NCBI GenBank assembly: GCA_965205425.1
Contig: CBDBGZ010000004.1
Coordinates: forward strand, 1 to 64,000
DNA: 64,000 nt
Reading direction: 5' to 3'
Origin: Nitrosopumilus sp.
Lineage (GTDB): Archaea > Thermoproteota > Nitrososphaeria > Nitrososphaerales > Nitrosopumilaceae
In this document: piece after piece, positions 40,819 to 49,751 of the stretch
How the letters are laid out: every line of letters starts with the position of its first letter
Numbering within the stretch: position 1 is the stretch's first letter
Notes under the pieces: model-generated
Database searches by the model: none
Told to the model about the DNA's origin: nothing
Seen by the model: the letters and a program-made list of their open reading frames with translations, nothing else
Position numbers and translations under genes: made by a program

Positions 40819-41093
40819 TTATCGTTTTTTTAGATATTTTGACAGAATTTCATCAGCCATTTCATCTACATCTATCTCTTTTTTACCAGCTAAACTGCGC
40901 AATTTCCTTGTATTTCCTTTATTCAACTGTATTGTAACTTTTTGTTGTAATAATCCTGCTCTGGCTCTTTTTAGTAGTTTAAGATGTGATGACTTTGGAG
41001 AACGTGTTAAACATTTGAGATATTCTTTTCTTAATTTTTGATCCAGTGGAATAATTTTCTCTGCAATGGATACAGCCTTTGGTACATTTGATA
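40819..41093 (-). pseudogene. ParB-like paralog, 3' fragment
   Basis: Matches the C-termini of the 22156 and 49751 copies; cut at a TA by IS630-B. Confidence 0.85.
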
Positions 41094-41192
41094 TAGCGAC
41101 GATCAAAAGTTCGCAAACATCTTTGCAGGATTTCTAAAGATATAATTTGCAACATCAAGCTTGAATTTTGTCACTCTGAAATATTTTGACAC
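41094..41192 (-). mobile_element. IS630-B right-end fragment
   Basis: Reverse complement of about 32415-32513. Confidence 0.88.
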
Positions 41193-45571: not shown

Positions 45572-45604
45572 ATCTTTATTAGCTACGCCTAAATTGATAT
45601 TCTA

Positions 45605-46357
45605 ATGACAAGAACAAAATATCTAATACCTCTGCTAGCAATGGTACTTCTAATTCCTGGAGTACAAACCTTTGCACAACCTGACATAATACCAGAAGAT
45701 GACACTATAGGACCAGTTGGTACAATAGATGTAGCAGTACAACAACCATCAGATGAGATTTTAGCACTGTTAGAATTATCTGAAACTGAAACAGACATAC
45801 AAGAACAAGAAAGGATCAAAGACGAACTAAATGCTTTAGGTGTTCCGACCACTGAACAATTAGATTCTAATTTTGAGTATTGGACATTAAAGTCATCATA
45901 TACAAAATTAGCTGAAGATCCTTTTGTTGAAAAAACAAATCAAGAAATAACTTTAGCAACCTATCAATCAGTACAATGTCCTGGTTGTAATCCTGAACCA
46001 GATAAAGTTGCATATTTTCCTGGTTATTGGTATGATTGTGGTTTGGCATATCAATGCTCAGCATCTGTTTCATCATGGGTTTTAGTTGAAGAACTACAAT
46101 CTAGATCAATTACATTCCATAATACGTCTCCTGAATCTAATCCATCAGTTCGTGGTTGGTATTATGTTCAAGGACCACAAGATTCTACTCTTGTTGATTG
46201 GGATGACATCTACATAGTCAACCCTACAGGATTTGATGAACGTCACTATTATGTTGAAGATGTAAATCCTTCAAAATTGAAATTGATGCCTGTTATTAAT
46301 AACGTACAGCAATCTCATCAAGTTGGATTTGTGTTTACGGTTCATTCCATTGACTGA
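45605..46357 (+). CDS. Secreted protein (paralog of 43006-43809; leader resembles the 9558 protease)
   Basis: Signal peptide ending TFAQ, PVGT, ELNALGVPTTEQLDSNFEYW, CPGC. Confidence 0.85.
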   Translation: MTRTKYLIPLLAMVLLIPGVQTFAQPDIIPEDDTIGPVGTIDVAVQQPSDEILALLELSETETDIQEQERIKDELNALGVPTTEQLDSNFEYWTLKSSYTKLAEDPFVEKTNQEITLATYQSVQCPGCNPEPDKVAYFPGYWYDCGLAYQCSASVSSWVLVEELQSRSITFHNTSPESNPSVRGWYYVQGPQDSTLVDWDDIYIVNPTGFDERHYYVEDVNPSKLKLMPVINNVQQSHQVGFVFTVHSID

Positions 46358-46563
46358 CTTCAAATCTTCAACTCCTCTTTTTTCTTTTCATAATATAATA
46401 TTGAAAAAAGGTACATCTATCACTAGAAAAACTATATCAGATAAACTATCCATTGAAGAATTTGAATGTGATTACATACAAAAAGAATAAAATAAAAACA
46501 GTAGCCTAGTTGGCTAACGACCTCAGAACCTGTTATATGATAATTTTATAAATTAATTAATGT

Positions 46564-46648
46564 TGGGGACTGGGAGGGACTCGAACCCACGATCAACGGG
46601 TTCTGAGGCCGTCGTTTTACCGACTAAACTACTTTGTTTCCCAACCCC
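46564..46648 (-). ncRNA. Non-canonical tRNA-like gene (loop CTCAGAA, central triplet CAG)
   Basis: D arm GTTT-AGTCGGTA-AAAC, anticodon arm ACGG/CCGT, variable TGATC, T arm GTGGG-TTCGAGT-CCCTC; atypical acceptor stem with a 9-nt insert. Confidence 0.7.
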
Positions 46649-46669
46649 AAATAACCATCAACACTCTTT

Positions 46670-46819
46670 GATGCTTTGAAATCATTTCTGATTCTATTGG
46701 ATTGCAATCATTTTATTGTACAGACAAACTTTCATTTTCAATTCATGAATCATGTTTTCTCTCTTGTGCGATGTCACATGCTCTCCAAATATTCTTTTGA
46801 ATACAGAGAATACTCCCTC
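46670..46819 (-). mobile_element. IS5-family element B, 3' fragment
   Basis: Reads EGVFSVFKRIFGEHVTSHKRENMIHELKMKVCLYN; left boundary approximate. Confidence 0.7.
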
Positions 46820-48159
46820 GTATATGTTTAGATCCCAACTCACACATACTTTACAATCTCGTACAAAAGATTACAATTCCTCATATTCCATGTCATGATG
46901 CAACTCATCAGATTTCCAAACATTCTCATACCCTTCTCATTCCTAACACATCCTCGAATCTTTCTGTGAATGACGGATTCTCTCAACGCGTGTTCTGCTG
47001 CATTGTTTGTAGGTTCTATGTTTTCATACAGCAAAAATGTAAACAGATCGTATTTTGTATTATACAATTTGTTTAGGAATTTCTCCAGTTCCTTTTCATT
47101 GCAATGCTCAGAAACAATTCTTTCAAAGAGATTCACTGCAGCATCATGTGCTGTATCACTTGGTTGTATGCCTTTGATATCGTAAAATAATCTCTGCAAG
47201 GAATAATACAGTGATTTTGAATTGTCTGTTTCTAGTTTTTCTGATGTGTGTCTTGCTTCACGCAGTATGTGTGCCCAACACTTCTGTCTGATACCAAACA
47301 TATGGTATGGCATCCATCCATCACAGACTGCAACTCCTGCAAATGATGGGAAATGTTTTTGCAATACATTTGCACCCCTGCTTTTCTCAACTGTGATGCA
47401 ACAAGAGTTCTGATTTACCCCAGTCCATACCCATCCAGTTTTTCCATGTATGGAACATTTTGTCTCATCAAAATGAGCAGATTTTGAGTCGCAAATGTCC
47501 TGTCTGATTTGTTCTACCATAGGCTCCAGTGCAGATGATACATTGCACAAGCAGTTGTTGATGGTTCCTGCAGATATTTTCAAATTGTAAAAGGCTTGAA
47601 GCATCTTTGCAATGTTTCTTAGTGTAACTCTTGCAGACCACAAAGATAGAATAATTCCTGTAATGTGAAATCCAAGACATCCTTTCTTTGGAATGGGGCA
47701 ATCAGTAACTGTTGTATTTCCACAATTGTTGCAAAAGTAAGAAGGAATAACATGTTTTGTTATGGTAACTGGTTGCGGTTTTGGGATTTCTGCAATGATT
47801 CGAGTTTGTTGTGTAGTTTGAGTTATTTTTTTACTGCCACAGTTTGAGCATTTCTTTGAATCATGATGAATTGTTTTTGTGGGTTTGAAGCTGTGAGTTT
47901 TACCATCATGTCCTGGCTTTTGTCCTGGTTTGTTTGGATGAGTTGATTTTCGTTCTTTCTTTTGTTTTTTCCAGTGGAGAGAATCAGATGATGGTGGAGA
48001 ATTTGGGTTCTCATAGTAGGATAATTTCTTCTTTAGCTCTGTAATCTCTTTTTGTAATTTATCGCATTGTTTGCAATCATGAAAATCGCCCATTATTGTT
48101 GCAAAATTCTTCCCTGATCTAAACTATTCGATATATCTAGGCACGACCTAAACACACAC
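46820..48159 (-). mobile_element. IS66-like element B (transposase 46840-48093)
   Basis: IRs GT(A/G)T(A/G)TGTTTAG(A/G)TC; NSPPSSD, HFDET, QKCWAHILR, PTNNAAE; no TSD. Confidence 0.9.
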
Positions 48160-48195
48160 GTCCTGAGTTGTAACATTTCTTGATGTGACATCTCC
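48160..48195 (-). mobile_element. IS5-A internal scrap
   Basis: Reverse complement of GGAGATGTCACATCAAGAAATGTTACAACTCAGGAC (about 17702-17737). Confidence 0.8.
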
Positions 48196-48275
48196 GGACG
48201 TGGTGTATTTTGGTGATCTGATCATCTAAATACACCAGAACCATGATTGGTAATAGATGGAAAAGTGATCATATA

Positions 48276-48333
48276 TAGCGAAAAGATAAAGTTCGTGAAC
48301 TAAATAATTCCAAAACAAAAAACTTTTTGATCA
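48276..48333 (+). mobile_element. IS630-B left-end fragment
   Basis: Matches 31427-31484. Confidence 0.85.
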
Positions 48334-48566
48334 GTCTACACTGTTCAATCTTAGTGGTTCTGGTAAATTATAGTGATCTGTGTTACAAAACATGAAATAT
48401 GGATCTTCTCCAAATTCGATTTTAGAGAACTTGGTTATTTCTATATGAATAATTTACTCCAAATCATTCTCAGTAAACCCTGCTGTTAAATTTTGGTGAT
48501 CTCAGCCTAATTTTAGAATTTTCAGAATTATTTTTCAAATATTTTGGACATAAGATTCCAAATTTT

Positions 48567-48836
48567 ATGTGGATGGGAGTAAGTATAGAAAATCAAGATT
48601 TTGTTTTAAGAATTAATGATTTGCGCAAAGTAAAATGTCATACACGATTCATAAGTTTTGAGCCATTAATTGGATATGTAGGAAAAGTAAATCTGAAAGG
48701 AATTGATTGGGCAATAATTGGAGGTGAGAGTGGACACCATTACCGATCAGTAGAAAAAGAATGGATTCTAGAAATTATTGAACAGTGTAAAAAGCAAAAG
48801 GTGGCCGTATTTTTCAAACAATGGGGTGCTAATTAA
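48567..48836 (+). pseudogene. DUF5131 (phage Gp37/Gp68) family C-terminal remnant
   Basis: WMGVSIE, RFISFEPLIG, IDWAIIGGESG, FFKQWG. Confidence 0.85.
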
Positions 48837-48941
48837 TTATCAATCCACAGTATACACACTTGAAAATTATGTGTTATTTTTTTGATCATTTGTCAATTAT
48901 TGACCACTTTACATTTTATCAAAAATAAAAAAGTCTGATAC

Positions 48942-49751
48942 ATTACGGCTAAAAAATATAATTCACCAATAACTTATCGATTAAAGGAAATTCCTGTAAA
49001 ACAGATTAAAGTATGGAAAGATGCACAGGCAAGAAAACTAGACCGCGAGGGAATTGCAGAACTTGCAAAGTCTATCAGAAATGATGGGTTACAAAATCCG
49101 CCGATGGTCCAGAAAAATGGTAAGAACTCTTATCTGTTAATGTCAGGCCAGAGAAGGCTTGCAGCTTTGAAAAGACTAGGTGCAAAAAAGATACCCGTAT
49201 TACTGTTAACAAATAGTACCAAATATGATTTAGAGGATGCAAAGGCAGCATCAGTTGTTGAGAATTTACACAGAAATCAAATGAACACTAAGGATATGAC
49301 TGCAGCTTGTGTATTTTTAACAGAATCTGTAGGAAAATCAAAGGCTGCAAAATCATTAGGGATTTCATCTCAGACCTTGAAAAAATACCTTGGATTTGCA
49401 GCAGTTCCAGAGAAACTAAAACGATTTGTTCCAAAAGAGTTGTCTTGTGATGATTGTACTAGATTATATCAAATTGTATCAAATGTACCAAAGGCCGTAT
49501 CCATTGCAGAGAAAATTATTCCGCTAGATCAGAAACTACGAAAGGAATACCTCAAGGCTTTAAGTAGATCTCCAAAGTCATCACATCTAAAATTACTAAA
49601 AAGAGCCAGAGCAGGATTACTCCAACAAAGAGTCACAATTGAATTAACTAAAGGAAATGCAAGGAAATTACGTAGTTTAGCTGGTAAAAAAGAGATTGAT
49701 GTAGATGAAATGGCTGATGAAATATTATCTAGTTATCTGAAAAGAAGATAA
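48942..49751 (+). CDS. ParB/Srx CTPase-domain protein with HTH and C-terminal RHH-like domain; probable non-canonical ATT start
   Basis: Frame open from 48939: ELAKSI..GLQNP, SGQRRLAA, ENLHR. Confidence 0.85.
   Translation: MTAKKYNSPITYRLKEIPVKQIKVWKDAQARKLDREGIAELAKSIRNDGLQNPPMVQKNGKNSYLLMSGQRRLAALKRLGAKKIPVLLLTNSTKYDLEDAKAASVVENLHRNQMNTKDMTAACVFLTESVGKSKAAKSLGISSQTLKKYLGFAAVPEKLKRFVPKELSCDDCTRLYQIVSNVPKAVSIAEKIIPLDQKLRKEYLKALSRSPKSSHLKLLKRARAGLLQQRVTIELTKGNARKLRSLAGKKEIDVDEMADEILSSYLKRR

Follow-up and report, generated by a model that had tools for sequence, protein, structure and literature searches.

Antisense RNAs that act in type I toxin-antitoxin systems and in plasmid copy control are short, carry a single-stranded seed and a terminator hairpin, and diversify in specificity by co-variation, traits that recur in the partner RNA described here; their targets are mRNAs or replication primers, not the anticodon arm of a tRNA. 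Toxin-antitoxin systems in which both partners are RNAs are classed as type VIII, and the accessible portion of the TADB 3.0 paper lists CreTA and SdsR-RyeA as the only validated kinds (PMC10767807). For thaumarchaea, a survey of mobile elements treats tRNAs as integration targets, and the word antisense is absent from those sections of its text available to us (PMC6563490). Here, we describe a locus in a window of 64,000 nucleotides, the whole stretch of Nitrosopumilus sp. DNA that was analyzed (contig CBDBGZ010000004.1, positions 1 to 64,000), in which the remnant of a tRNA stands beside an inverted complement of its own anticodon arm. The feature is real, and is a member of an undescribed family of tRNA/anti-tRNA gene pairs. 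We propose that each intact pair is probably an RNA-only toxin-antitoxin pair, in which a missense tRNA toxin would be silenced by an anti-tRNA RNA.

A broken tRNA and its predicted antisense RNA

Rfam recognizes a partial tRNA at 46573-46632 on the minus strand (43.8 bits, model 7-64) and matches no family other than tRNA in the window; ARAGORN calls no tRNA gene at the locus. The truncated tRNA, which we take as the broken toxin half of the predicted module, occupies 46566..46629 (minus strand) and retains positions 10-73, comprising the D, anticodon and T arms and the 3' acceptor strand with U70. It is 83% identical to an intact module in genome G036, and has C at position 73 where intact relatives have A73. 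Its anticodon arm (46596..46612, minus strand) carries the anticodon CAG (Leu) at 46605-46603 and a C31-C39 mismatch, a common trait of the tRNA family.

The 5' acceptor strand and promoter of this tRNA have been replaced by the end of a 1,011-bp IS5/IS4-type element (46630..46819, minus strand), itself interrupted by an IS66 element (46820..48159, minus strand; transposase ORF at 46840-48093). Eight other near-identical ends of the 1,011-bp element occur in the genome, five intact copies have 8-bp target duplications, and the transposase of the intact copies is DDE_Tnp_1. We rejected an 'insert' at 46630-46819 as part of the tRNA, given that this segment is an IS end with near-identical copies elsewhere in the genome. 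Because the IS end occupies these positions, the window tRNA has no native promoter and no native 5' acceptor strand, and with it no native G3. Neither the missing 5' strand nor an IS end with a matching target duplication was found in the assembly. Contigs of four sequencing runs over 45600-48900, which speak to presence only, contain the IS junction; a joint that would make the tRNA whole again is absent from them.

By chance, the IS end at 46641-46650 pairs with the orphaned 3' acceptor strand at 46563-46573 (minus strand). The resulting stem has 7 bp, among them a G-U at the 3-70 register, and an additional loop of 9 nt, and C73 lengthens the pairing (fold z -5.05); since the IS end is identical in all copies, this acceptor stem was not shaped at the window locus. 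A chimeric RNA might arise through transposase read-through. The module lies within a decayed island, whose features at 40819-41106, 48567-48836 and 49104-49751 include a DUF5131 fragment, of a kind that also occurs close to the module of G036, and a ParB-like gene end present in duplicate.

Past the tRNA's 3' end, 46517-46534 is complementary to 46595-46612 at 16 of 18 positions, and in a minus-strand transcript the two arms, as read from the sequence, would pair at 17 of 18 including one G-U, as an earlier note on this DNA had observed. The complementarity extends beyond the anticodon arm into the D arm, and the 17-nt anticodon arm finds 15 Watson-Crick matches at the locus, more than in any of 5,000 random 160-nt genome windows (maximum 14). 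Read-through RNA of the locus folds at -49.6 kcal/mol (z -6.4, 0/200 shuffles). The earlier note had the copy mirror an insert as well as the D and anticodon arms; both arms stand, while the AAACA match to the insert is a coincidence, since AAACA is the complement of a U-run and the insert, being an IS end, lies outside the tRNA. The note had also assigned the copy to the strand opposite the tRNA, whereas the copy's predicted RNA is read from the minus strand, as is the tRNA. Neither the alanine identity of the tRNA family nor the truncation by the IS formed part of that account.

We predict a gene for an antisense RNA of ~40 nt at 46494-46533, all of whose parts lie on the minus strand. Its 5' seed (46517..46533) is the complement of tRNA positions 27-43, including the anticodon, and is followed by a 3' hairpin (46502..46516), the sole terminator-like site in 46300-46900, whose loop and 3' strand are also complementary to the D arm, and then by a U-run (46494..46498) that would serve as an archaeal terminator. 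Alignment A3 places a TATA-like box, the predicted promoter, at 46553..46560, in register with the box ahead of 45 of 47 partner RNAs; TTTTATAAA, previously pointed out in the spacer, is indeed present at 46544-46552 and offers an alternative TATA-like box. Since the IS removed the tRNA's 5' strand and promoter, we read the window copy as most likely an orphan antidote beside a dead toxin. At L192, L159, L221 and L346, too, the tRNA is damaged or replaced while the partner stays, and this frequent loss of the tRNA first, with the partner spared, fits a toxin-antidote reading.

A family of pairs in archaea, and modules of similar layout in bacteria and viruses

Genome G036 contains two close homologues of the locus, inverted copy included. 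Each is a complete tRNA bearing G3·U70 and A73; the anticodon is CAG in one and GAA in the other, and the loop that each copy matches is that of its own tRNA. The window's genome has 59 ARAGORN tRNAs and among them seven extra short-arm tRNAs with G3·U70 and A73, whose anticodons are GUC, GAA or AAG. Although ARAGORN is blind to antisense, all seven prove to have a cognate complement, located upstream on the opposite strand in three cases, and in three divergent modules that are 93% identical, substitutions in the anticodon arm are accompanied by matching ones in the partner. All eight antisense RNAs of this genome pair best with their own neighbor among 60 tRNAs; the window's antisense RNA reaches -44.2 with its own tRNA vs -38.6 with tRNA-Ser(UGA). 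This genome (G000) also has five other surplus tRNAs, whose variable arms are long and whose anticodons are GAA, CCU or ACC (L033, C8:120792; L029, C9:254931; L035, C9:901280; L034, C9:356124; L036, C9:1042184), for which no antisense partner was found.

G3·U70 is a conserved determinant of alanine identity, and archaeal leucylation involves the long variable arm, according to the available part of one source (PMC9976931). The family tRNAs lack a long variable arm, with an architecture of 7-bp acceptor, 5-bp T stem and 4-5 nt variable loop, and in alignment A3 all 16 intact relatives carry the alanine identity set of G3·U70 and A73, G3·U70 being kept in 16/16 although four of seven acceptor pairs co-vary. 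The alanine anticodon NGC does not occur in the G3·U70 family: the anticodons of 50 tRNAs are GAA (20), GUC (12), AAG (10), CAG (4), GAG (2), AUC (1) and GAU (1), which are Phe, Asp, Leu or Ile anticodons. An anticodon-blind search of five carrier genomes returned the narrow Phe/Leu/Asp set with one extra AAG and one irregular CUC. These are two further alanine-body tRNAs (G531:C2:2568258-2568314 and G128:C1:234288-234342), one with AAG and the other with an irregular 8-nt loop around CUC.

Covariance-model searches and tRNA-only pattern searches together yielded at least 50 distinct G3·U70 tRNAs with non-alanine anticodons, a lower bound, in 19 genomes of ammonia-oxidizing Nitrosopumilaceae from four genera. 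Nine rows below the acceptor threshold and 12 with another 3-70 pair were left out; of these excluded rows, L418, L421, L185 and L428 do have partners. With 12 of 17 Watson-Crick matches as the minimum, a partner is present at 46 of the 50 vs 1 of 93 true tRNA-Ala loci, and at 20 of 23 in the antisense-blind subset from tRNA-only pattern searches, counts that overstate independence because the patterns required U70-A73, most required A37, and the loci are related. The true tRNA-Ala genes that served as controls were most of what an order-level pattern search returned. Three of the 50 are without a partner: L411 and L431 are visibly damaged, and L448 has an intact acceptor and no partner that we could find.

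Pairing is specific within this set. Cognate partners average 14.0 matches of 17, against 7.4 for non-cognate combinations and 9.1 for non-cognate ones with the same anticodon, and the cognate partner is best or tied in 46 of 48 cases. Complementarity peaks at positions 29-40 (42 to 48 of 48), and the duplexes average -43 kcal/mol. Across the 17 tandem modules, a 13-bp tRNA-partner helix is 87.7% paired with 12 of its positions changed on both sides, figures that are not to be read as probabilities because the loci are related and the helix was chosen from the same alignment; whole-structure values of this alignment are reached by 0/500 shuffles, and slid controls collapse. The check on homologous loci that the earlier note had suggested thus finds the complement retained, with 12/13 helix positions changed on both sides, and on this comparison its idea of an RNA toxin/antitoxin-like pair gains credence as a predicted function.

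The family is patchily distributed, in at least 19 of about 348 family genomes, with up to eight different pairs per genome. A scan of genome contigs gave four modules among 20 matches, all in Nitrosopumilus sp., and a metagenome search with a loose pattern gave one true module among the matches listed. In the 131 genomes of family f15, matches were 3' att-type fragments or tRNA-Val, and a phylum scan of 261 genomes, with a pattern that admitted neither A34 nor U36, gave no module outside family f1, which we take to be Nitrosopumilaceae.

The partner appears to be a separate trans-acting RNA, as it has its own TATA-like box, 3' hairpin and U-run and lies on the opposite strand in 30 of 47 cases. 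Among 47 pairs, 30 are divergent and 17 tandem, and two more (L185 and L421) are convergent. The TATA-like box starts 23-30 nt ahead of the seed in 45/47 partners, a U-run of at least five U follows in 44/47, and the hairpin reaches -4 kcal/mol or lower in 42/44. As a control, TATA box and U-run occur together at 25 of 93 downstream positions, where the background is high in AT-rich genomes, and at 0 of 91 divergent positions. In the partner's hairpin, five of six base pairs co-vary, and the 5' strand of this hairpin does not derive from the tRNA.

All 13 loci with mapped flanks lie among insertion sequences and island genes, and no protein common to all modules was found among their flanking genes. 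Small ORFs labeled from their sequence as AbrB-like, ribbon-helix-helix-like or zinc-finger-like stand beside some modules; Pfam names no AbrB-like neighbor above its cut-off, and Atlas matches at 0.85 are leads only. A related AbrB-like ORF of 53-69 aa is divergent from four tandem modules (L028:4120-4329 and L029:3689-3850, and upstream of the tRNAs in L156 and L183), and in at least three of the four the promoter region shared with this ORF contains direct repeats; its product is possibly a repressor of the tRNA. Near 1499 in L422, the upstream partner runs straight into the anticodon arm of the tRNA and both promoters are lost, the outcome expected of a deletion between a divergent module's two direct repeats. 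Loci L159, L346 and L221 are mosaics of a tRNA, its own partner and a second orphan partner of other specificity, pointing to module swapping.

Five bacterial-type modules share this layout, on four viral contigs and in one Chloroflexota genome. In L866, L872 and L863 (viral contigs) and in L897 (Chloroflexota, one of 291 genomes searched), a G3·U70 tRNA with GUC, AUC or GAG stands ahead of TTGACA, which is separated by 17-18 nt from a -10-like box; a cognate seed and a hairpin come next. Sigma-70-type promoter boxes are clear in four of the five modules, and L589 has a divergent partner with 15/17 matches and no clear promoter boxes. The cognate duplex is best for 4/5, two modules adjoin phage major head genes, and in three virus records the module tRNA is the sole tRNA. 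A promoter-anchored, partner-blind scan found a partner at 3/3 non-alanine tRNAs with a stem of at least four pairs (3/5 including weak stems) and at 0/13 true tRNA-Ala. Counting against generality, a partner is present at only 3 of 27 G3·U70 non-alanine tRNAs on viral contigs; some of the viral scans cover the matches listed. An initial viral pattern scan returned tmRNA ends and ordinary tRNAs only, and BLAST of L594 against phages and plasmids gave no match.

Proposed function and competing explanations

In the toxin-antitoxin mechanism we favor, G3·U70 and A73 would cause the tRNA to be loaded with alanine, which it would insert at Leu codons, its relatives doing so at Phe, Asp or Ile codons. 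Both RNAs would be transcribed, the antisense RNA being short-lived; its single-stranded seed would invade the anticodon loop, which an open 31-39 pair often widens, and the duplex would zip on through the D arm and so keep the tRNA from decoding or from maturing. Were the module lost or its transcription shut off, the stable tRNA would be free to corrupt the proteome, and the outcome would be upkeep of mobile islands or prophages, or abortive infection. As far as sequence can tell, the predicted toxins have beside them a gene for a cognate, co-varying RNA complement, as a specific antitoxin would be. Taking the archaeal, bacterial and phage modules together, we consider it an evenly balanced question whether they form a cross-domain class of protein-free selfish or defense modules, each with a code-breaking tRNA toxin that would place alanine at Phe, Leu, Asp or Ile codons and a dedicated anti-tRNA antidote. 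In such a class, joint evolution of anticodon arm and seed would generate new specificities, and many pairs could share a genome without interfering.

The consulted portion of a yeast study reports that 52 of 57 tRNA-Ala anticodon variants mistranslate, with CAG among the most growth-reducing, GAA intermediate and A/U-rich anticodons mild, so the anticodons favored in the family are not the most toxic set (PMC10543346). Against the proposed mechanism, CUG is rare in this genome (3.8 per 1,000 codons). Against decoding, the 31-39 pair is open in 31/50 family tRNAs and C33 occurs in 9/50, both being found in 0/93 tRNA-Ala, and these traits may weaken or abolish decoding.

Such attenuated decoding would also suit a regulated mistranslation switch serving host or element, in which the antisense RNA tunes an alanylated weak decoder to diversify the proteome under stress, and no addiction is involved. 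Small predicted DNA-binding genes divergent beside some copies could be read in the same way, and yeast tolerates low-level G3·U70 mistranslation, as stated in the available part of the work (PMC5389508). We nonetheless consider a switch unlikely: patchy presence, up to eight pairs per genome, IS-rich sites, fast turnover of specificity and tRNA-first decay all favor selfish modules.

Somewhat more doubtful still is the idea that the tRNA-shaped RNA does not decode at all and acts as a sponge for alanyl-tRNA synthetase or elongation factor, or as a control RNA of the mobile element, its loop a mere address. Apart from one irregular CUC, the triplets in the five carrier genomes do not leave a narrow Phe/Leu/Asp set, in contrast to the free variation of stem bases; the 17-nt arm is kept, U8 and the D-loop GG are present in 48/50, and the bacterial modules draw on the same Asp/Leu set. 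These constraints outweigh, in our judgment, the open 31-39 pair in 31/50, the lack of a conserved protein partner, and the inactivity in translation of some allo-tRNAs near toxin-antitoxin loci noted in the main text of their description (PMC5389517).

The earlier note's cis-antisense switch, taken as a purely cis mechanism, is not supported by the comparison, and we think it improbable that the pairing acts only as a folding lock, with a read-through precursor that self-folds and keeps the tRNA inactive until cleavage. Read-through RNAs of tandem modules do reach fold energies between -40 and -66 kcal/mol, compared with -16 to -35 for the isolated tRNA, and a U-run ahead of the partner is missing from 12 of the 17; but the 30 of 47 partners encoded upstream on the other strand are unable to fold in cis, and tandem partners have promoter-like boxes of their own, of sigma-70 type in bacterial copies. 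Folding in cis may be an added layer in tandem copies.

Least probable by far is a neutral scar of an inverted duplication or integration event, the other origin offered earlier: tRNA genes are common integration targets in these archaea (accessible text of PMC6563490) and L382 has an inverted copy beside a true tRNA-Ala, but the family comparison of loci, anticodon-arm and partner statistics speaks against it: the offset is constant, at 46-51 for most pairs, 48 distinct arms show co-variation, the conserved hairpin has no source in the tRNA, and ordinary tRNAs almost never have such a copy. At L382 (near 1502; G193, family f15), the D and anticodon arms of a true tRNA-Ala(GGC) recur after the gene, inverted and free of mismatches over 24 nt (16/17 by our measure), and G193 holds several 3' att-type fragments of the same tRNA. 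We also rejected an att remnant, that is, a direct near-identical repeat of a tRNA's 3' part: the copies seen here span the D arm and the anticodon arm, stand inverted or divergent and carry conserved structure beyond these arms, and true 3' att fragments in family f15 look different.

Comparison with known systems

We found no description of a tRNA/anti-tRNA pair in a search of mostly open-access literature, and the supplements of Mukai et al. could bear on novelty. If the proposed function is correct, these modules contain within about 150 bases a toxin that attacks the genetic code with host enzymes only, antidote included. They explain why Nitrosopumilaceae genomes yield a class of extra 'Phe/Asp/Leu' tRNA calls, suggest one way for identity-mismatched tRNAs to survive outside the laboratory, a matter relevant to the onset of codon reassignment, and supply dozens of natural tRNA/anti-tRNA pairs whose specificity is directly testable.

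Among known tRNAs, the closest are the allo-tRNAs (Mukai et al. 2017), which are likewise extra tRNAs with a mismatch between identity and anticodon, proposed as missense suppressors and located near mobile or toxin-antitoxin loci, as described in the consulted parts of two papers (PMC5389517, PMC7609411). In allo-tRNAs, which are bacterial, the acceptor branch is 8/4 or 9/3 and the variable arm is long (PMC5389517, main text), whereas the G3·U70 family has the canonical 7/5 branch and a short variable loop; the words 'antisense' and 'complementary' are absent from that main text. Engineered yeast tRNA-Ala variants and G3:U70 missense suppressors share with our family a G3·U70 body under a non-alanine anticodon, and they mistranslate and slow growth. 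They are, on the accessible text of both sources, laboratory constructs or selected mutants without a natural antidote RNA (PMC10543346, PMC5389508).

The predicted addiction logic is that of type VIII systems: in SdsR-RyeA and CreTA, going by the descriptions available to us in part, both partners are RNAs that lie side by side on the same or opposite strands. In SdsR-RyeA the partner overlaps its target, whereas here it is a separate, diverged copy. CreTA depends on a CRISPR repeat and Cas, a dependence absent from the tRNA/anti-tRNA pair; we found no repeat-like unit in the partner, only tRNA as an Rfam match in the window, and no cas gene among 13 proteins scanned. The predicted toxin here also differs from those of both systems, as so far described in the text consulted, in being a complete tRNA whose predicted mode of action is miscoding at the ribosome. 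If toxicity is shown, tRNA/anti-tRNA pairs would rank as a new class next to the two type VIII systems known so far.
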